42,825 bases of DNA from Deltaproteobacteria bacterium (GCA_020351915.1 CP070673.1:4986278-5029102), one strand, 5' to 3'. Counted from the first letter of the stretch, positions 30,190 to 42,825 are shown. The notes: a model not told the origin generated them from the letters alone. Numbers and translations: made by a program.

Positions 30190-32259
30190 ATGAAAGAAGT
30201 TAGATACTTAAAAGTAACTAATGAGCTTGGCATGCATGCCCGGGCAGCTGGCCAGATAGTAGCCTTGGCTGGCAAATATGACGCCAGATTGTTTCTAAAG
30301 AAAGACACTCGAGAGGCCGATGGTTCAAGCATCCTGTCGATTCTTTCCCTGGCTGTGCCCAATGGGGAGGAGATCGAGGCCAGGATAGTCGGTAGGAAGG
30401 CAAAAGAGTTCATGGATGAGCTGGAAAGCCTCTTTATCAATAATTTTGGAGAAACCGAAAGTCGGCCGTATCGCCCTAAAAAGAAGGTAATGAAGGGATT
30501 TTCCGTTTCTCCGGGTATTGTTATTGGTAAAGCGTACCACCTTGATAGATCTAAGGCCCAGGTTTTTCACCGGAAACTGATCAATGAAGAAGAGGTACAA
30601 AGAGATCTTGCTCGTTTCAGGCAGGCTGTGGACATGGCAAAGGAGCAGATCCAGAAGTTTAAATCCAGTATCCCAGAGCGGGTAGAGGGCTATGCCTTCG
30701 TGCTGGATACCCATTCAATGATCCTGGATGATGCAATGCTCTTTGATGCAACCTTAAAGAGAATCCAGAAGGAGAAGATCAATGCCGGGTGGGCGTTGGA
30801 AAAATCGGTAAAAAATATCCATGTGCTTTTCAAAGAGGTCGAGGATGACTACATTGGGCGAAGAATGGACGATGTTGATAGCGTTAGTGAAAGGGTACTG
30901 CGGAACTTAGCAGGAGTAGAAGCAGAGAGCCTGGCTGACATTCAAGGCGAGGTTATTGTAGTAGCCCATACCCTTTCGCCGGTTGACATTGTTGAGATCG
31001 ATGTAGACCATGTGCTCGGCATTTTGACTGATGTTGGGGGCCGAACGTCACACATGGCTATTATGTCTGAAGCCCTGGACATACCAGTTATTGTTGGGTT
31101 GGAAAGGGCCACCGATGCGATCCTGCAGGGCGACATTTTGATCGTTGATGGCAATACTGGCGAGGTTATTGTTAACCCTGACCCCAAAACCATTCTTTCT
31201 TATGAGGATGAGATAAGGCGTTATGCCAATTACAAATCGGCCATAGATAGGGTCAAACATCTACCGGCCGAAACTCTGGACGGACACAAGATAACCGTCA
31301 AAGCCAATATTGAGTTTTTGGCGGAGGCTCAGGTAGCAATTGAGAGCGGTGCAGAGGGCATAGGACTCTATCGGACAGAATACCTCTACCTGCTTAAGAG
31401 AGATTTTCCAGATGAACAAACCTTGTTTCAGGATTACGACCAGATTGCCAGAATGGTGGCTCCAAATCCGGTTACCATAAGGACCCTGGATATTGCAAGC
31501 GACAGGATGGAATCAGAAATGGACGGGAGCAGGGAGGATAATCCTGCTTTAGGTTTAAGATCTATTCGATTTTGCTTGAAGGAGCGAAAGGTATTTAAGA
31601 CCCAGTTGAGGGCTATTCTAAGGGCCAGCAGATATGGCAATTTCAGATTGATGTTCCCCATGATATCAGGTTTGGAGCAATTTCTAGAGGCAAAGAAGGT
31701 GTTACGGAGTGTTATGCGCTCTCTCGACAAAGAGGGCATTGAGTATGATAGAGGGATTCCTGTTGGCATTTTGATCGAGATTCCCTCTGCAGTATCTATA
31801 GCAGATATTCTTGCAAAGCATGCTGATTTCTTTTCAATAGGAACGAATGACCTTATTCAATATGCCCTCGCCATAGACAGGGATAATCAACAGGTTGCCG
31901 GTCTCTACGATCCCTTTCATCCCGCTGTCATAAAGATGGTACATCAGGTGGTCAAGGCAGGCGAAAAGGAAGGAATTGATGTATCCCTGTGCGGCGAAAT
32001 AGCCGGTGATCCCCTCTCTATTTTGATACTGCTTTCTTTGGGATTGGAGGAATTCAGTATGAATATCGGCGCCATTCCCCTGGTCAAGAAAATGATCAGA
32101 ATGGTACCATTGCAAAAAGTGAAGGAGGGTTTTAAGGATATAATTTCTTTACCTACCAGTAAGAAGGTTGAGGATTTTGTCTTGAAAAGGGCAAAGGCTC
32201 ACCTGCCCGATATCTTTGAGGAAGATGTCTTTAGGTACCGGACCCCTGGCACTGCCTAA
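30190..32259 (+). CDS. ptsI: Fused HPr - PEP:protein phosphotransferase (Enzyme I)
   Basis: Residues ~1-88 are HPr (GMHARAA, DGSSILSILSL); then EI (GGRTSHMAI, GIGLYRTE, NPALGLRSIR, SIGTNDLIQY, CGEIAGD). Confidence 0.95.
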   Translation: MKEVRYLKVTNELGMHARAAGQIVALAGKYDARLFLKKDTREADGSSILSILSLAVPNGEEIEARIVGRKAKEFMDELESLFINNFGETESRPYRPKKKVMKGFSVSPGIVIGKAYHLDRSKAQVFHRKLINEEEVQRDLARFRQAVDMAKEQIQKFKSSIPERVEGYAFVLDTHSMILDDAMLFDATLKRIQKEKINAGWALEKSVKNIHVLFKEVEDDYIGRRMDDVDSVSERVLRNLAGVEAESLADIQGEVIVVAHTLSPVDIVEIDVDHVLGILTDVGGRTSHMAIMSEALDIPVIVGLERATDAILQGDILIVDGNTGEVIVNPDPKTILSYEDEIRRYANYKSAIDRVKHLPAETLDGHKITVKANIEFLAEAQVAIESGAEGIGLYRTEYLYLLKRDFPDEQTLFQDYDQIARMVAPNPVTIRTLDIASDRMESEMDGSREDNPALGLRSIRFCLKERKVFKTQLRAILRASRYGNFRLMFPMISGLEQFLEAKKVLRSVMRSLDKEGIEYDRGIPVGILIEIPSAVSIADILAKHADFFSIGTNDLIQYALAIDRDNQQVAGLYDPFHPAVIKMVHQVVKAGEKEGIDVSLCGEIAGDPLSILILLSLGLEEFSMNIGAIPLVKKMIRMVPLQKVKEGFKDIISLPTSKKVEDFVLKRAKAHLPDIFEEDVFRYRTPGTA

Positions 32260-36000: not shown

Positions 36001-37138
36001 TTAGATCTTTCCAAGTTCTCTCAATAAAACGCAAGAAAGAACCGTAAGTACCCCCAGAAAGAGAACGCCAATCTGGAAATTCCAGGCATCGGCTACTGCA
36101 CCCAAGATCGCTGGGGTGAACCCAAGTCCAACCGCGACCCCGGTGGCCATGTGGTTGCTCCAGTAAAGGTACCTCGTTCGTGTACTGTTGTAAGTTTTGA
36201 GATTGCCACGAGGACAGCCGGAAAGAATCCGGGGGAAAAAGTTGCCTGAAGAATGAGCATTGTCACCAAGAGGGGAAAAGTCTGGGAAACAGCCACGCCA
36301 ATCGTTGAAAGACCTGTAGCTACCAATGAAAAGAGGAGAATCCTTTTGACCCCAAACCGATCCACAAGAAACCCGGCTATGAGTGTCACAAAAAAACCGC
36401 CGATCCGCGAAAAGCCAAAGCCGGTATTGGCCATTTCCAGCTCGATTCCCTTCTCCTTGACGAGAAATAGAGGCATCATATCGTAGAGGCCGAGACTGCT
36501 TGACGCAGCAAAAATCAAGAGGATGGCTATGATCCAGAAATCCCTGCGACGAAGCACCCGTGAGAACCGAACCCGTTTTTCCTCCCGGGGACGAGGGTCT
36601 GGAGAAAGCGCCCAGAAAAAGATACCGACAATTACGCAGGCTGCACTCAGAACGAAAAAAAGGTCCTTCAATAGAAAAAAGGCAGGGCAAGGGCTGTGAA
36701 AAGTGGGATGGAGAGAATGCTAAAAGAGGCAGCCGTTTCATGAAATGCGATGGCCTTTCCCCAGTTTTCACCCCTAAAGATTGTGGTTAAAAGGGGAAGG
36801 GCGCTTGGCACGTATAGACGCGTACCAATCCCGACAAATACGGCAGCAGTTGCAAGTGAAGAAAAGGTTGTGGTGTATCTTAAGGAAAATAGGGCTGTCG
36901 CCAGAATAGCGAACCCTAATGCAATGGAACGTTTGTAGCCAATACGGAAGGATAGCAATCCATCTAAGGCCAAGGTTATGCTATAGCCTATGGACAGAAA
37001 AGAGAATATGCTGCCTGCCAGAGCATGGCTAATGGCGAGCTCATCTTCGATAAGGGGTAGAAGGGGAGAAATAACTGTTCTGCTGGAAAAGTAAACATAC
37101 CACAGACCCCAGAAGAGCAAGAGAAGCAAAGCTTTCAT
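36001..37138 (-). pseudogene. MFS transporter with two frameshifts
   Basis: MFS sequence continues across three ORFs (36668-37138, 36093-36671, end of 36001-36771); motif-A-like GLLSFRIGYKR and GFLVDRFGVKR; shifts near 36670 and 36150. Confidence 0.85.
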
Positions 37139-37504
37139 GCCTAAACTCTAAGCAGTCCTCAGATATTTTACAATCCCTTTATCCTGAATATTCGGACTGA
37201 AACCTCATTCTTTCCCCAGAAATAGGGAAAATGAATATCATATTTAGTGCCCTTGCTGAAGGCTTCGAACTGAGAGCTCACCTTAGAGTGCGCCTACTTC
37301 GTACTGAGAGCTTCATGGAACAATCAGGTGCGGGTTTACTAAGCAGAGCCTCGTAAGAAGGATCAGTAAAGAGATTGAAAACAAGGTGGAATCATCAATA
37401 AGATCGCAAAAAGGACTGCCTGAATAACGCAACCCCTTGACCGGAAAATACTTGAAATTTTTCTATGATGTTTAGGCTAAGATCTTTACACTTTTTGCAA
37501 ATCG

Positions 37505-37942
37505 TCAATCAAGAGTCTTTTCCAAGTTAACAAAGTCAGATCTATCAAAGCCAAGGGACTTAAAAAAGGACAAGAGGTCAGTTGAATCCCACTTGACTGA
37601 GGAGTAAACATTTCGTACATCCATTTTCTTAAATTCCTTGAAAACCTCCTGGGCCATCTTCTTTCCAATCCCCTGTCCCATATATTTGGGGTCAACACCA
37701 AAAAGCCCAATCCAGGCACTTTTTTCCAGACCAAATCCACCGTAGAGAATATAGGTGATCAGAAATCCTACCACGTTACTATCAAGTTCAGCCACAAAGC
37801 TAACTCTATTCTTATTCTTTACCTCTTCTTCAACAGCCCTCCGATAATCTATGATGCCGCGTTTCTCGGTAATTGCTTTCAGGATTTTGGAAATATCGGC
37901 GAGGTCCTGTTTCCCTAACCTTCTTATAATCAGCTTTTCCAA
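37505..37942 (-). CDS. GNAT-family N-acetyltransferase
   Basis: FVAELDSNVVGF, GVDPKYMGQGIGKKM, FFKSLGF; AGGAGG SD before TTG 37942. Confidence 0.9.
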   Translation of the reverse strand: MEKLIIRRLGKQDLADISKILKAITEKRGIIDYRRAVEEEVKNKNRVSFVAELDSNVVGFLITYILYGGFGLEKSAWIGLFGVDPKYMGQGIGKKMAQEVFKEFKKMDVRNVYSSVKWDSTDLLSFFKSLGFDRSDFVNLEKTLD

Positions 37943-37980
37943 TGCGATAGACCTCCTGCCATCTATATATAGTTTGTTGG

Positions 37981-38157
37981 TTAATCTGTCCTGATTATCT
38001 TTACGTGTTTTCCGACCCACTCTGGTGGAAGATAGATCCGACCGCTGTTACCGCTCAATTTCACCTCTTTTTCGAGCATTTCTTCTCCAAAGACCTCAAA
38101 TTTGACCTTTCTTACCTTCTCATCTGAGGCGGTCTCGTTTTTTCTTTTACTGTTCAT
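37981..38157 (-). CDS. DUF2080-family small protein (58 aa)
   Basis: Below the ORF-track cutoff. MNSKRKNETASDEKVRKVKFEVFGEEMLEKEVKLSGNSGRIYLPPEWVGKHVKIIRTD contains the EK.VK..GNSG.IYLP..W.GK.V pattern. Confidence 0.8.
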   Translation of the reverse strand: MNSKRKNETASDEKVRKVKFEVFGEEMLEKEVKLSGNSGRIYLPPEWVGKHVKIIRTD

Positions 38158-38548
38158 CAGTTATCCATCATCCATCTACTGTAACATCAAGATTGATTAA
38201 AGAAAATGGCCCTTACTAAGGTGCAGTTTTCAGAGATGCCTCTCATTGAGGCCGTACTATACTATATAATATCATAAAATATGATTATTTTCTAGCCACA
38301 ATGTGACTATTCTTTATCATTAAGAAAAGCGATATGGGATTGCAGTAAAGGATAGAGATGCTTGTGGCTCGATTCAAAAAGAATCACAGAGAAGAAAGGT
38401 GAAACCTGATCACGGTGGAGGTTGAATTTGGGGCTGTCAGACTGAAGTTCTAGTTTCTTTGCCACAGTAGGTAACAAGACCGTTCTTTCATAGCGATAAG
38501 TCTCATTCTGTATTAAAGGGGGGAAGGCTGGTTTTGAGGAACTTGCTC

Positions 38549-38578
38549 AAAGAAAAGAAGGGGCATGGCCCCTTCTTT
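38549..38578 (-). terminator. Intrinsic terminator of the ECF/CBM operon
   Basis: Perfect 11-bp stem AAAGAAGGGGC-ATG-GCCCCTTCTTT with T-rich tail on the minus strand, 27 nt past the stop at 38605. Confidence 0.75.
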
Positions 38579-38604
38579 ATGAAGTGTGCTTTATCCTAGC
38601 GCTC

Positions 38605-39462
38605 TTATTTATGCCCACCTCCGCCACCGTGACCTGAGCCTCCTTCATGGCCAGAGCTACTTGGCCCGCCAATTCCGCCCATACTGCCTGGTCCACTTGT
38701 ACTTGAAGATTCAAGGCTTTCAGCACCTATTCCTTGTTTGATTGCGCTAGAGTACATCCTTGCAAGGTCGGTGGGTGCAGTGGTTCTAGAGCGGGTCATA
38801 AACGAGGTTCTCATTGCTTTCATCTCTTTTGTACTATAACGGTGTTTCAGGGCCTGACAAACAACATCTGCGGCATCCTTGGAGGAGGCACCGAGGCGTG
38901 CCATATCCCTTGCAGCCCTGAACGTCTCTGTGGCAAGTTCAATTGTTTGAGCTTTCCTCATCTGTTGGGCCCTCTGTTGTAACCTCTCCATGATTTCGCC
39001 TACATCGTTATCATTCACACCCGCTGCAAGTCCCTTGGCTATCGCATTCCCGAGACTCCACATCTGGGCTTTCTCCTCTGTGAGTTTTCTAGCTTGCTCA
39101 TAGGCGAAGGCATAGCGAGACCTAACGTTTTCCATTGCTTGCACGATATCCCTGTCCTGCACCTGCTTGGACATTCCTTCATATGCCTTGTTCATGATGG
39201 GTGCTACAGGCAATCCTTTCTCTTGGGCGCTCATTATGATCGCATGCGCTCTCAGGGCATGCTCCTCTCTGAAGTGATGGTTCAGCATGAGCCGGGTCAT
39301 CTTTATGGCATCATCACTTTCTATGCCAGCGCGTATCACCTGTCTGGTACTTACTCTGAGTCGGTCTGTAACCTGATTCGATAGCTCTTCGTCCACCTCA
39401 TCCGCAAATGCCACGGCGGCACCAAATAAGAAGACAAAGGCTACTATGCATATACTTTTCAT
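38605..39462 (-). CDS. Secreted alpha-helical hypothetical protein with Gly/Ser/His-rich tail
   Basis: AAAGGAG SD; signal peptide MKSICIVAFVFLFGAAVAFA; tail GPSSSGHEGGSGHGGGGGHK. Confidence 0.85.
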   Translation of the reverse strand: MKSICIVAFVFLFGAAVAFADEVDEELSNQVTDRLRVSTRQVIRAGIESDDAIKMTRLMLNHHFREEHALRAHAIIMSAQEKGLPVAPIMNKAYEGMSKQVQDRDIVQAMENVRSRYAFAYEQARKLTEEKAQMWSLGNAIAKGLAAGVNDNDVGEIMERLQQRAQQMRKAQTIELATETFRAARDMARLGASSKDAADVVCQALKHRYSTKEMKAMRTSFMTRSRTTAPTDLARMYSSAIKQGIGAESLESSSTSGPGSMGGIGGPSSSGHEGGSGHGGGGGHK

Positions 39463-39493
39463 GTTCGCTTTCTCCTTTCCTGTTGATTTAATC

Positions 39494-39523
39494 TTATAAC
39501 GTATGATCACTAGAAAGGTTACA
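39494..39523 (-). promoter_or_regulatory. Putative ECF sigma promoter, internal copy
   Basis: TGTAACCTTT-CTAGTGATCATA-CGTTATAA; boxes and spacing identical to 40892-40921. Confidence 0.75.
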
Positions 39524-39845
39524 TGTCTGGCACATATATGCAGCTCTCGGAGCCGAAATCGTCACTTTCCTTGACTCTGCAGTGTGGTAGGTACACAACC
39601 CCGTCCACGATATAGAAATATTTGAATTCCCTGTGTGCTGGAGCTGTGGCTTCCCAAATCCTATCATTGCCATGTTTTGCTTTGTGAAGCTCGTAACGAT
39701 CCAGGGAAGATACAAAGAAGACATCCTTGGCATTGGGCCTTTTGAGATAAATATGAATCGTGTCCTCTTTCACTTTGTAATAATGGCTTGTGCATCCTGA
39801 AAGGATAAGCATGATGGCACCTATGAGTAGGACGTGGGTTTTCAT
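39519..39845 (-). CDS. Lipoprotein with CBM48/AMPK1-type glycogen-binding domain
   Basis: Lipobox LSGC; PNAKDVFFVSS...IWEAT...EFKYFYIVDG...ESDDFGSESC. Confidence 0.8.
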   Translation of the reverse strand: MKTHVLLIGAIMLILSGCTSHYYKVKEDTIHIYLKRPNAKDVFFVSSLDRYELHKAKHGNDRIWEATAPAHREFKYFYIVDGVVYLPHCRVKESDDFGSESCIYVPDM

Positions 39846-39847
39846 GT

Positions 39848-40411
39848 CTATGACTCGACCAAGATGATTGAATTCTGACCACCGAAATCATCTCGCTCCC
39901 TGGTCGGTACGGTTGGGTCAGCAAATCTCTCCTGACCCTCGAGGATATAAGTGAACCGGTGTTCTCCCTCTGGGAGATTAAGGGTAATCTCCCAGTAGCC
40001 GGTGGAGCCAGTCCTTTTCATAGGGATCTTCTTCCATTCGGTGAAACTACCGGTGATCTCTGCCCTGATCACATCAGGCCGGTAAAAGACGAACCTGTAG
40101 GGGACAGCGGTGTGCACTTGAGAAGGCATGGAAAAGAACAAAATGATAAGCACTCCTGCAACTGCTGAGGCAACCAGGCCCATGGGACGCAAGAGAGGCG
40201 TGAACAGGGAAGAGAAAAAGCCTTTGCTCACTTTTAACTTAACTGGCGGAACATGGTCCACCACTTCCGAGCGGATTACCCTTTCCTGATTCAAAAGCTC
40301 AACGGACTCTTCCTTAAAGGTCTTGTCGGAATGTACCCTTTCAACAAATTCTATCTTGTCGTCGATGCCTAGCTCGTTGTCGATGAACATGCTAATCATA
40401 TCATCCATCAT
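39848..40411 (-). CDS. Putative anti-sigma factor: N-terminal cytoplasmic domain, one TM helix, CBM48/AMPK1-type domain
   Basis: ISMFIDNEL (anti-sigma-like, no HxxxCxxC); TM GLVASAVAGVLIILFF; AEITGSFTEW..IPM..GYWEITLNLPEGEHRFTYIL..ADP...DDFGGQNSIILV; ATGA-type 4-nt overlap with the sigma gene. Confidence 0.8.
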   Translation of the reverse strand: MMDDMISMFIDNELGIDDKIEFVERVHSDKTFKEESVELLNQERVIRSEVVDHVPPVKLKVSKGFFSSLFTPLLRPMGLVASAVAGVLIILFFSMPSQVHTAVPYRFVFYRPDVIRAEITGSFTEWKKIPMKRTGSTGYWEITLNLPEGEHRFTYILEGQERFADPTVPTRERDDFGGQNSIILVES

Positions 40412-40884
40412 AATTCTCCTGTTTGGAGGATTTCTTTTAGTTTGCGGCGGGCACGGTGAACCTTTACCTTCACATTGGCCTCGCTTATGCCCGCAATTAA
40501 GGCAATTTTCCGGTAGGTGAACTCCCCAGTTACGACAAGGGCCAGTATATCTCTTTCACTTTTGTCCAGCCTCTGCATGGCCGAAAGGACCCGGCGATAT
40601 TCCTCACGAATCATAAGGACATTTTCCTGATCACGAGAGCAGTCCTCTTGGCCTGCCTCAAACTGGGGGTTGTTCCAGTGTCTTCCTGTATTATCGAAAA
40701 GTGCATTCCGCGCTATGGTGTACAGGAGTGCGGAGCTCTGTGCTTCACGTCCGTAATGCTCCAGGTAGCGTGTGAAACTCTCCTGCATAATATCGCTCGA
40801 TAGGTAGTAGTCCCCTGTCATTCGCATGAGGTATGCGAAGAGCTTGCCCCTTTGTTCCTCGTAGAATGACCCGTATTCATCCAT
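40408..40884 (-). CDS. ECF (sigma-70 group 4) RNA polymerase sigma factor
   Basis: Region 2 DIMQESFTR...LLYTIARN; region 4 FTYRKIA...SEANVKVKVHRARRKL. Confidence 0.95.
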   Translation of the reverse strand: MDEYGSFYEEQRGKLFAYLMRMTGDYYLSSDIMQESFTRYLEHYGREAQSSALLYTIARNALFDNTGRHWNNPQFEAGQEDCSRDQENVLMIREEYRRVLSAMQRLDKSERDILALVVTGEFTYRKIALIAGISEANVKVKVHRARRKLKEILQTGEL

Positions 40885-40891
40885 ATCTTTT

Positions 40892-40921
40892 TTATAACGC
40901 ACCGGAAATAAAAAGGTTACA
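40892..40921 (-). promoter_or_regulatory. Putative autoregulatory ECF sigma promoter
   Basis: TGTAACCTTT-TTATTTCCGGTG-CGTTATAA; contains the AAC (-35) and CGT (-10) cores common to ECF promoters. Confidence 0.75.
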
Positions 40922-41393
40922 CAATTTTACAAATATTTTTGAGCCTGCCATATGCTTCATTGGATAAGCTCAGGGTGAATCACCCCCAATAGGAATAGGG
41001 AGTTTCTTTCAATGGAGTTTCAAAGATCAAAGGTAATGAATGACTACGGTCAAAGGGCTTTGTGCCGGTGATTTTTCGAGGGTGAAAATTTTTTCCGGAA
41101 AATTTTTGATATACTCTTAACACAAAGTGGCCAGATCGTAGAGCCGAAAATTCCAGATTGTGTGCCACTACCCAGAGTTTTTGGAAAGTAGGTATATCAC
41201 TGGGAAATCAAGAACCTAACCAGCTTGCAATTTCGATTCTCTTTGTCACTCTTTTGCGAAGCACCCCGCGGACTATTCTCGGTTTCCAGTATCGGTATGC
41301 AGTCACCAAGGGTCGCTGCTATTTCATTTTCTATTATAAAAGATGGGTAGGGTTATGAAGGGAGCGGCTCATGTTCCCCAATGTCCGCTTTCC

Positions 41394-42825
41394 TCACCGC
41401 GGAGAAGAGCTCCCCTCGGATTCTTCAAAAAATAAATTCTCAATAAGGTGGACTACTGCCTCTGCTTTTTTCAGGTCTAAAACCGTGGCATGAGCAAAAA
41501 TCTTGATGGGAGTGGACAGTGCCTTTTCTATCATTGTTTCACGGAGTGGTTCGATCCTGGCCTGAGCCTCAGCAAAGCTCTTTTGAGAAGCAAATTGCTG
41601 AAAGATCTCTTGCTCAGTGTCTATGTAGTGTTCTCTCTGTGTGGTCTTGAAATCCCGCCAGAGGTTCTTATCCTTCTGAACCTTTGCCAATGATGCCCTC
41701 ACGAGATTGGCAATTTCATTTTTAAAGATAGGGAACCGCTGCTGTGCAATTGTTTTTTCATCTTCCCCTAATGTCGCCAGTAGATCCATGAAGAGCTCTC
41801 TGGTAACGGAGTCGTGTATTTTTTCCTTTATGGTTCCTGAGTCCAGGTCGAATAACAATTCACTGTAGTCAGGTCGTACAATGCACAAAAGGGAGCTTGC
41901 AAAAAAGCTCTGATGCCCACGGCATTTCTGTCCGGCATCATCGATAGCCTCAACATCAAATGTCAACGAGATACGGTCACAATAGTCCTGTTCGGTAAAT
42001 CCGTCGAACATGAGGCAGCTTTTAAGGGGAAGATCATTTGCGATGCTCTGCTCTAGTATCTTTGTTTCCTGGCCTTTGGTTATGGTGGCGGACAAGTTGA
42101 CCGGAGCAACCAGAGCATTAGTACGCATGTTACAAAAGATGGGTTCAGCAACGTAGCCCAATTTATAATTGATGACAAATCCAACGATGAGTGAGTTGGG
42201 ATCATTAGGATCTCCAATGGGTCTACCATGAACAAACACGCGTCGGTCCCAAAGGGCTTCAATTTCGTCCTGAGTGGGATTTTCGTCGATTACCTGCACA
42301 TCTTTGTAGGCTTCTGTAACACCTTGAATGAATTGTCCTTGGTTTTGAGTGCCCATAGCCGTATATGCGTATCCTTGGTGTAAAAAGGGAAACACTTCGA
42401 TTGCTGGTCTGCCGAGTTGAATACCAATGGTCCTGGAGCAGTCCGGCCTTTCTAATTCAACCGTAACAGTGCGAGCATAGGAATTTTCGGAAATAAGGAA
42501 GTGCACAGGCACGGAGATTGACCCGGTATTCTGAGGACATAATCTGTGTGCAAAGCTGGAATTATCTCGCGGATCGTGGTAGGGATGTCCATCAACTAAT
42601 ACCGTAAAGCGCGGTATGTAGTTACATGCCCAGGAAAATTTGAGCTCATAGCGATCACATCTCACTTTAGGTTGGGAACCGAGGGCAAATCTGCTCTGGA
42701 AATTACAGTGATCAATGGTCAAGTCACGAACATCGGGCCCCGGCGTTAGGAGCTCAACATAGCAGACGGAATAATCCGACAATCCAGTGCTGTCACTGTC
42801 AAATACCCCTAAGTTTTCATAACGC
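41394..42825 (-). CDS. Hypothetical protein, C-terminal part (frame open to the window edge)
   Basis: At least 462 codons open; the frame has no stop upstream of TTG 42782 up to the edge; no recognised motif. Confidence 0.7.
   Translation of the reverse strand, partial: RYENLGVFDSDSTGLSDYSVCYVELLTPGPDVRDLTIDHCNFQSRFALGSQPKVRCDRYELKFSWACNYIPRFTVLVDGHPYHDPRDNSSFAHRLCPQNTGSISVPVHFLISENSYARTVTVELERPDCSRTIGIQLGRPAIEVFPFLHQGYAYTAMGTQNQGQFIQGVTEAYKDVQVIDENPTQDEIEALWDRRVFVHGRPIGDPNDPNSLIVGFVINYKLGYVAEPIFCNMRTNALVAPVNLSATITKGQETKILEQSIANDLPLKSCLMFDGFTEQDYCDRISLTFDVEAIDDAGQKCRGHQSFFASSLLCIVRPDYSELLFDLDSGTIKEKIHDSVTRELFMDLLATLGEDEKTIAQQRFPIFKNEIANLVRASLAKVQKDKNLWRDFKTTQREHYIDTEQEIFQQFASQKSFAEAQARIEPLRETMIEKALSTPIKIFAHATVLDLKKAEAVVHLIENLFFEESEGSSSPR

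Follow-up and report, generated by a model that had tools for sequence, protein, structure and literature searches.

A conserved ECF sigma factor cassette of sediment bacteria in which a CBM48-type anti-sigma domain is predicted to hold the cassette's own secreted protein

Pairs of extracytoplasmic function (ECF) sigma factors and their anti-sigma factors are among the commonest bacterial signalling devices, and their input is mostly unknown. What such a pair senses is the question raised by a quartet of minus-strand genes (positions 38549-40921) in a stretch of 42,825 nt from a Deltaproteobacteria bacterium (GCA_020351915.1, CP070673.1:4986278-5029102), the whole of which is referred to here as the window. 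The quartet encodes an ECF sigma factor, an anti-sigma factor with a CBM48-like domain, a lipoprotein and a secreted protein, designated H. The original prediction, made from the sequence of the window, had read this set as a candidate alpha-glucan-sensing system, with protein contacts of the Ig-like domains as a fallback. The sequence evidence gathered here names a concrete input, namely the cassette's own secreted protein, predicted to sit on the very face of the sensor domain that is annotated as "glycogen-binding".

The four genes had been described as tightly linked and closed by a terminator, and the coordinates, overlap, gaps and hairpin were all found to be so. The sigma gene (40408-40884) and the anti-sigma gene (39848-40411) overlap by 4 nt (ATGA, with the anti-sigma ATG lying over the sigma stop codon), a gap of 2 nt separates the anti-sigma gene from the lipoprotein gene (39519-39845), and 56 nt separate the latter from the H gene (38605-39462). 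The cassette ends in a terminator-like intrinsic hairpin with a T run (38549-38573, minus strand), in which a G+C-rich stem (38573-38558) is followed by CTTTTCTTTG. The order of the quartet and its tight spacing were kept in all nine further loci that had a full-length match to the anti-sigma factor (L002-L010); two of these loci were more than 90% identical to the window, and among the others the anti-sigma identity fell to 34-36%, and the arrangement can be considered beyond chance because the gene order is identical down to that level. The flanks of the window and of seven loci were then compared, using 14-16 kb per locus where the contigs allowed it (two contigs were shorter than 6 kb). 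The four cassette genes were the only content common to all eight, apart from which isolated pairwise matches were observed, indicating that the cassette is an autonomous, self-contained unit.

A search of the source genome detected a single copy of the anti-sigma gene and a single copy of the H gene. Among 332 candidate relatives of the anti-sigma factor, 231 matched at E <= 1e-3; those with a name are called "glycogen-binding domain-containing protein" and come from metagenome-assembled genomes of Desulfobacterales, Thermodesulfobacteriota and Deltaproteobacteria, plus one labelled Spirochaetales. Of 301 sampled genomes of the phylum, 30 had an anti-sigma match at E <= 1e-5, which was full-length in eight (the source genome included). 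Metagenome runs from sediment and marine sediment, belonging to several coded studies, contained near-identical DNA. The cassette is real, conserved and self-contained, and belongs to sediment bacteria of the sulfate-reducer type. Contigs from RNA libraries (four coded runs, 85-99% identity) covered pieces of the H, lipoprotein and anti-sigma genes; these contigs come probably from relatives and maybe from DNA carry-over, and reveal no starts, strand or level, so they support no claim of expression, and the missing cover over the sigma gene is uninformative.

The product of the first gene (158 aa from the ATG, minus strand) was assigned to the ECF (group IV) sigma-70 factors, as had been proposed, on the basis of above-threshold matches to Sigma70_r2 (27.6 bits, cut-off 24) and Sigma70_r4_2 (44 bits, cut-off 25.7) in Pfam, without region 1 or region 3, and to TIGR02937, sigma70-ECF, in NCBIfam (70 bits, cut-off 42.9). 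Its closest solved chain was the ECF sigma factor SigL (6dv9_F, E = 3.4e-9). Hallmarks of the class were also present in the form of the overlapping anti-sigma gene and of an AAC...CGT-type motif upstream of the sigma gene in 10/10 loci, where a promoter is predicted. The specific NCBIfam sigma models all remained under their cut-offs for this protein, the best being SigM_subfam with 79.6 against 147.95. It may already carry an ECF group number; the main text of the ECF re-classification (PMC7826278), whose supplements tabulate the group contexts, makes no mention of CBM, glycogen or AMPK.

An alignment of the upstream regions placed the motif TGTAACY-N15-CGTT at a fixed position before the sigma gene in all ten loci. 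AAC...CGT motifs are of the kind typical of ECF sigma factors. In the window the motif takes the form TGTAACC-N15-CGTT upstream of the sigma gene (P1; 40896-40921, minus strand), and a second copy is situated upstream of the H gene (P2; 39498-39523, minus strand), where its -35 part overlaps the stop codon of the lipoprotein gene. The window contained exactly these two matches, compared with 0.01 expected, and none of 100 shuffled versions reached two; the P1/P2 pair was also the top direct repeat (D1) returned by a repeat finder, further repeats in the region being short two-copy matches that were taken as chance. The sigma start codon lies 11 nt past the CGTT core in the window and 9-12 nt past it in nine of the ten loci, which is why the ATG at 40884 was taken as the start; a longer GTG frame from 40902 reaches into the promoter. 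With such a distance the sigma mRNA would probably be leaderless or nearly so. Between P2 and the H gene lie about 35 nt of leader, which carry a strong GGAGA ribosome-binding site, and the exact form of the motif precedes H in six of the ten loci, its core (GTAACC-N15-CGTT), judged by eye, in eight. Across the 5.09-Mb genome, TGTAACY-N15-CGTY gave five matches against about 8.8 expected by composition, an unenriched count, and a longer form of the promoter was shared by the two cassette copies alone. From these patterns we infer that the sigma factor drives its own operon and, separately and more strongly, H, and that there is no other strong target in the source genome. The role of output that had been claimed for the secreted protein fits with its own copy of the sigma-type promoter motif.

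The second gene (minus strand) encodes a protein of 187 aa with a short N-terminal anti-sigma domain, one hydrophobic span in the hydropathy profile (residues 77-95) and a periplasmic CBM48/AMPK1_CBM-like domain at about 105-187, which is the single-pass architecture that had been read from the sequence. The C-terminal domain matched the Pfam families AMPK1_CBM (residues 116-186, E = 1.2e-11, 45.1 bits, cut-off 26.8) and CBM_48 (E = 6.6e-5, 23.6 bits, cut-off 22.4), and a profile of nine orthologues searched against PDB retrieved the CBM of AMPK beta1 (1z0n, E = 9.2e-9). Pfam detected no zf-HC2 domain in the anti-sigma factor of the window; in distant relatives an N-terminal zf-HC2 was found in 5/5 of the CBM48 proteins scanned, which were all rows of the distant alignment but the sixth (L025). 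The family of the window protein and that distant family (zf-HC2, membrane span, CBM48) were aligned by hhalign with 99.5% probability (E = 4.9e-23) over columns 6-186, the N-terminus included, and because this alignment to zf-HC2-bearing relatives is full-length the second gene product was identified as an anti-sigma factor. In the same alignment the N-terminus of the window protein falls about 14 residues further in, and R25, D29 and F32 occupy the ligand positions of the H-x3-C-x2-C motif, so that by homology the protein is placed in the zf-HC2 (class I) lineage as a member without the zinc site.

The lipoprotein (108 aa, minus strand) has a hydrophobic N-terminus and an L-S-G-C lipobox at residues 15-18, with C18 invariant and G17 nearly so in 43 sequences. 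It had been described as almost only a CBM48-like domain. It had no Pfam match, and the best E value of its profile against PDB sequences was 0.73; its profile aligned with that of the anti-sigma domain over 75 columns (hhalign, 98%, E = 1.4e-13), and its AlphaFold2 model (pLDDT 86.5) gave 22 Foldseek matches at E <= 1e-3, led by the CBM48 domains of AMPK beta, SEX4 and TreZ. Superposition on 1z0n_B covered 78 columns with a target-normalised TM score of 0.81 and a root-mean-square deviation of 2.1 A. On the strength of these profile and model comparisons, the protein is classed as a single CBM48-type domain despite the absent Pfam match. The DDFG motif attributed to both CBM domains was indeed near-invariant in each (D174-D175-F176-G177 in the anti-sigma factor, D95-D96-F97-G98 in the lipoprotein), forming part of a hairpin, E-x-D-D-F-G-x-x-N, which is nearly invariant in anti-sigma factors and lipoproteins alike. 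Two further cysteines beyond that of the lipobox, C89 and C102, flank the E-x-DDFG loop and are invariant in 43/43 lipoproteins, the anti-sigma factor having V and S at these places; a C89-C102 disulfide that staples the hairpin of the lipoprotein is likely. One lipoprotein relative (P0273), with 186 aa and a precomputed PF01797 match in Pfam, may be a fusion or a gene-calling artefact; the other 37 have 96-111 aa and no Pfam match.

Whether these domains still carry the sugar-binding site of their closest relatives was then examined position by position. The set of carbohydrate-binding residues of AMPK also counts L146 and N150. In AMPK beta1, W100G and K126Q abolish the binding of glycogen and W133L and G147R weaken it, according to a review (PMC6274970). 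Positions were mapped through a HMMER alignment to rat AMPK beta1, in agreement with the numbering of S108, T134, G147 and T148 in that source, and residues were counted in 49 anti-sigma and 43 lipoprotein sequences. The W100 position (W126 in the anti-sigma factor) was W in 49/49 anti-sigma factors and Y or F in 43/43 lipoproteins. At the position of K126, the anti-sigma factors (residue 154) had T (n = 33), S (n = 6), I (n = 5), V (n = 3) or A (n = 2), and all 43 lipoproteins had F. At that of W133, the anti-sigma factors (residue 161) had Q (n = 26), E (n = 12), R (n = 5), K (n = 4), H (n = 1) or I (n = 1), and the lipoproteins had V (n = 35) or else A, P, I, M or L. The L146, G147 and N150 positions correspond to F176, G177 and N180 of the anti-sigma factor. 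One essential AMPK position (K126) and one contributing position (W133) are therefore replaced in both paralogues, indicating that an AMPK-type glycogen site is not intact; since CBM48 sites vary, this residue loss would not disprove glycan binding.

The fourth gene (minus strand) encodes H, a protein of 285 aa that had been described as secreted and helical. Both properties are supported by an N-terminal hydrophobic signal ending in A-F-A (AFA|DE) and by a confident AlphaFold2 model (pLDDT 88, pTM 0.79), in which H is an all-helical solenoid with helices over residues 30-250, followed by a disordered Gly/Ser/His tail with a basic last residue. The tail is a family trait, with a median G+S fraction of 0.69 in the last 40 residues and a terminal K, H or R in 44 of 52 relatives. 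When H and 51 relatives were searched with Pfam, no family matched more than five of the 52 and all matches were weak. Foldseek retrieved nothing from PDB at E <= 1e-3 for H (best, a designed nanocage, 8.6e-3, TM score 0.2), and the best match of a wide structure search was the designed repeat protein DHR10 (Z = 9.7), which is under the level meaningful for helical repeats. No natural fold relative can thus be named for H, and the novelty of its fold is not thereby shown. The size of the family was estimated with an H profile against 1.84 billion representative proteins, which yielded 814 matches at E <= 1e-3, 485 at E <= 1e-10 and 306 at E <= 1e-30; the 814 are clusters at 50% identity and are covered by no Pfam family. 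An automatic label, "DUF5667", attached to one H cluster in the ESM Atlas, was unconfirmed by Pfam and was set aside; the other clusters there were unnamed Thermodesulfobacteriota.

The distribution of H was compared with that of the CBM48 anti-sigma factors over the phylum. The H profile detected an H-family gene in 18 of the 301 genomes, and in 16 of these it was located less than 1 kb from a CBM48 anti-sigma gene. The two exceptions, with no CBM48 anti-sigma match in their own genome at E <= 1e-5, were one gene 200 nt from a contig end (G201:C146:202-1095) and one that is unexplained (G099:C78:9694-9993). In the opposite direction, an H match at E <= 1e-5 was missing from 14 of the 30 genomes that had a CBM48 match, although several of them do show H at a laxer hidden Markov model (HMM) threshold. 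The phylum search supplied a further 22 more distant loci, each with 1.5 kb of flanking sequence and some truncated by the end of a contig, and these were scanned with HMMs of the four proteins. An ECF sigma gene was found beside the CBM48 protein gene in 14/22 and an H homologue in 13/22, in a variable order: sigma/anti-sigma/H in L011, L015, L019 and L022, and sigma/H/anti-sigma in L014 and L021. The distant H homologues, which are paired with anti-sigma factors carrying zf-HC2 and CBM48, have about 200 aa, match the first two-thirds of the H sequence (hhalign, 98.4%, E = 4.6e-15) and share an invariant K-x2-E-G-x-A-K. Judged by gene neighbourhood, H is a constant companion of the CBM48 anti-sigma factors across the phylum. 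Three of the distant loci (L018, L020 and L028) had a small CBM48-only protein (125-145 aa, one of them Pfam-positive) upstream of the sigma gene and not downstream of the anti-sigma gene, so that an extra CBM48 copy recurs at different positions.

Because H constantly accompanies the CBM48 anti-sigma factor, these two were chosen as the pair for complex prediction, with residues 98-187 of the anti-sigma factor, residues 22-252 of H and an own alignment supplied for each. The predicted complex scored ipSAE 0.85, 0.84 and 0.83, compared with 0.00 for the best of three controls, and had 48-49 confident contacts, a partner pLDDT of at least 89 and a contact agreement between runs of at least 97%. 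Among 80 solved complexes 58 reach the mark used for this score, as do 2 among 110 mismatched pairs, rates that are rough since own alignments were used. On the CBM side the modelled interface comprises residues 120-122, 125-128, 154, 156, 159-160, 162, 169-176 and 182, that is, W126, the equivalents of AMPK K126 and W133 and the DDFG hairpin, which together are the counterpart of the glycogen site. On the H side it comprises residues 91-92, 94-101, 105, 109, 112-113, 146-148, 186, 189-191 and 225-226, including six of the 12 residues that are invariant in the family (K92, E95, G96, K99, A109 and R189), and conservation over the interface positions of H is higher than elsewhere in the domain (0.779 against 0.607, permutation p = 0.0001). 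The modelled complex makes it likely that the CBM48 domain binds H. The lipoprotein retains the aromatic residue (Y/F in 43/43) together with E93, D95, D96, F97 and G98, and given these retained contact residues it probably binds H likewise, as a competitor or as a second anchor.

Taken together, these results do not support the headline of the original prediction, alpha-glucan sensing, since the K126 and W133 positions are lost, glycan genes are unlinked and the same face is predicted to hold H; the fallback of protein contacts fits best with a predicted complex that puts H on that face. A specific mechanism can be proposed, to which we give about an even chance: a self-activating ECF loop, closed on itself, that monitors its own periplasmic protein and makes up for its loss, with H as the brake and with sensor domains that are protein receptors and not sugar binders. 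The cytoplasmic N-domain of the anti-sigma factor would, by homology, hold the sigma factor, and H would dock through its invariant K-x2-E-G-x2-K helix and neighbouring repeats on the former carbohydrate face, at W126 and the E-x-DDFG hairpin (the AMPK L146 loop). As long as H is bound, the anti-sigma factor would stay intact and the sigma factor sequestered. Consumption or degradation of H, or its capture by the lipoprotein or by a target in the envelope, would lower the level of free H and lead to cleavage of the anti-sigma factor; the source genome encodes a Peptidase_M50 site-2 protease homologue (222 bits). The freed sigma factor would fire P1 and P2, and fresh H would replenish the pool and shut off the loop. 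The lipoprotein, made in step with the anti-sigma factor from P1, could be a competitor for H or retain it at a different membrane, and thereby set the threshold, and the physiological stimulus would be whatever removes free H. A more general proposal is put forward more tentatively, at somewhat short of even chances: that the CBM48 fold has been converted, across a family of ECF modules, from a glycan binder to a dedicated receptor for an H-type family of periplasmic helical repeats not recognised before, the cassette being a closed homeostat whose sole transcriptional output is its own ligand and whose lipoprotein paralogue is a competing receptor, so that an effector-titration logic of the Psp/Cpx kind would operate on an ECF sigma factor.

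The same binding evidence from the predicted complex could also be read with H as a trigger. Lysozyme binding, for instance, exposes RsiV to site-1 cleavage. If the binding of H likewise exposed the anti-sigma factor to site-1 cleavage, a bistable switch with positive feedback would result, in which the lipoprotein buffers basal H; a co-expressed competitor with the same contact residues would suit such a threshold-setter. However, autoregulation at P1 combined with positive feedback through H and without an evident off-switch would be a runaway, and the known three-part ECF systems use their periplasmic partner as a brake (RseB, MucB), so that we regard a triggering H as quite unlikely. H might, on the other hand, be an effector with no sensor contact at all, such as a periplasmic chaperone or a protective envelope protein, leaving the CBM48 domains to sense another envelope component, such as peptidoglycan or an intermediate of the outer membrane or of lipids, or else to sense one another over the width of the periplasm by contact of the RcsF/IgaA type. 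A gene with its own sigma-type promoter and a strong ribosome-binding site is what would be expected of an effector, a single conserved loop in both CBM paralogues could serve a common non-protein ligand or a heterodimer, and the lipoprotein, which lacks Asp at +2, would go to the outer membrane by the rules of E. coli. This reading is at variance with the high score of the predicted complex, its zero-scoring controls and the invariant H residues at its interface; moreover, the occurrence of H homologues beside a CBM48 anti-sigma gene in 16/18 genomes, sometimes inside the operon between sigma and anti-sigma genes, suits a signalling partner better. We consider it unlikely, if less so than the trigger.

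The glycan sensor itself, in which both CBM48 domains would bind a periplasmic or extracellular alpha-glucan or other glycan and so release the sigma factor, H being a response protein, would agree with the AMPK1_CBM and CBM_48 matches above the Pfam cut-offs, with a fold like that of glycogen- and starch-binding CBM48 domains, with conserved W100, G147 and N150 positions, and with SigI/RsgI of Acetivibrio thermocellus as a precedent for anti-sigma factors that use a CBM as sensor. Nevertheless, the K126 and W133 positions are in summary non-basic and non-aromatic, respectively, throughout the 49 anti-sigma factors and 43 lipoproteins. As the original prediction had itself recorded for hydrolases and transporters, genes for a glycoside hydrolase, a sugar transporter or glucan synthesis are absent from the neighbourhood of the cassette in the window, and none is common to the eight loci. 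With no further exact-motif target in the genome and with the same face predicted to hold H, a glycan sensor is improbable, and the least probable of the readings considered here.

Several points weigh against the closed loop braked by H. Three of the loci (L001-L003) are near-identical, so that the ten loci amount to about eight independent lineages, and two of the ten (L005 and L009) lack the exact or core motif before H. The regulon search was made with the exact motif only, and weaker sites elsewhere are possible. The retained W100 and N150 positions (W126 and N180) make some glycan affinity possible. The contact of H with the anti-sigma factor is a matter of model confidence and not a measurement, and the CBM side of the modelled interface is no more conserved than the rest of its domain (0.714 against 0.705, p = 0.44). 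Finally, whether H brakes or triggers the loop is a matter of inference alone.

No glycan enzyme is encoded around the cassette, whose neighbours in the window are unrelated to it: a GNAT acetyltransferase, a DUF2080 protein, an MFS transporter, an alpha/beta hydrolase and a 476-aa frame. Directly downstream of the cassette (37505-38157, minus strand), a 58-aa frame of DUF2080 ('putative transposon-encoded') overlaps the start of the GNAT acetyltransferase gene by about 40 nt, and the pair looks like a small two-gene module. The MFS transporter (36093-37138, minus strand) is divided into two frames with a 4-nt overlap, one of which (36668-37138) corresponds to positions 8-144 of MFS_1 and the other (36093-36671) to positions 154-335; this may represent a frameshifted or split gene or an assembly error. 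Upstream of the cassette, the 476-aa frame (41394-42824, minus strand) is open at the window end, has no Pfam match and is not conserved beside the cassette in relatives. The 470-nt gap between this frame and P1 had no Rfam match, and no Rfam family was detected at E <= 0.1 over window positions 37000-42825. Farther away, a 689-aa frame (30190-32259, plus strand), which is followed by smpB, joins a phosphotransferase system HPr domain with a complete enzyme I (PEP-utilisers N, mobile and C domains).

Should the domains prove to be receptors of H, a misleading annotation would be corrected across hundreds of environmental genomes, and a new protein family would be joined to a new, protein-binding use of the CBM48 fold and to a new sensor-ligand pair for extracytoplasmic signalling. 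The cassette would also offer a minimal orthogonal set of sigma factor, anti-sigma factor, ligand and promoter for a synthetic-biology switch. If glucan nevertheless proved to be the ligand of the domains, the cassette would represent the first ECF-based sensor of glucan in Gram-negative bacteria of sediments.

Among known systems, RpoE-RseA-RseB of E. coli and AlgU-MucA-MucB of Pseudomonas are alike in having an autoregulated ECF sigma factor, a co-transcribed single-pass anti-sigma factor and a periplasmic partner that binds the periplasmic part of the anti-sigma factor and governs its proteolysis. In the cassette, unlike in these systems, the anti-sigma factor has a folded CBM48 domain as its periplasmic part, the sensor domain recurs in an additional lipoprotein paralogue, and the partner has its own sigma-type promoter motif, with no exact-motif regulon beyond the cassette. 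The partner itself differs, since H is a helical-repeat protein of no Pfam family; the RseB/MucB Pfam family was not found in H or in 52 relatives, and the structure searches list helical-repeat proteins, mostly designed. The resemblance is one of logic and not of membership. The zf-HC2 anti-sigma factors of the RsiW and RslA type (PF13490) are connected to the window protein through its full-length homology to zf-HC2 plus CBM48 relatives, with the zinc ligands replaced here. CpxP/CpxA and PspA/PspF are similar in that their most-induced product, a helical envelope protein, acts on the sensor and is also the brake, and in CnrH-CnrY-CnrX the helical periplasmic protein CnrX is the partner of an ECF/anti-sigma pair; the cassette was not found to be related to CpxP, PspA or CnrX in sequence or fold, and those systems use different signalling chemistry and sensor domains.

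With SigI/RsgI of Acetivibrio (Clostridium) thermocellus, the cassette shares a membrane anti-sigma factor that presents a C-terminal CBM fold to the outside. It differs in the ECF type of its sigma factor, in the zf-HC2 lineage of the N-domain and in a Gram-negative-type envelope with a lipoprotein, as well as in the loss of key sugar-binding positions and in the absence of linked glycan-degrading targets, and it does not belong to the RsgI family. The AMPK beta CBM (1z0n/1z0m) provided the best sequence and structure matches of the cassette domains, in which the W100, G147 and N150 positions are kept; by comparison, K126 and W133 are replaced here, the setting is periplasmic, and a protein is the predicted occupant of the face equivalent to the glycogen site. 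A literature search retrieved no description of an anti-sigma factor with an AMPK1_CBM/CBM48 domain, the loosely matching papers being, by title and abstract, carbohydrate-active enzyme and gut-glycan surveys or unrelated. What is new in the present cassette, relative to all of these, is the conserved P1/P2 motif, the loss of the K126 and W133 positions in both CBM48 domains, and the predicted placement of H on the former sugar face.

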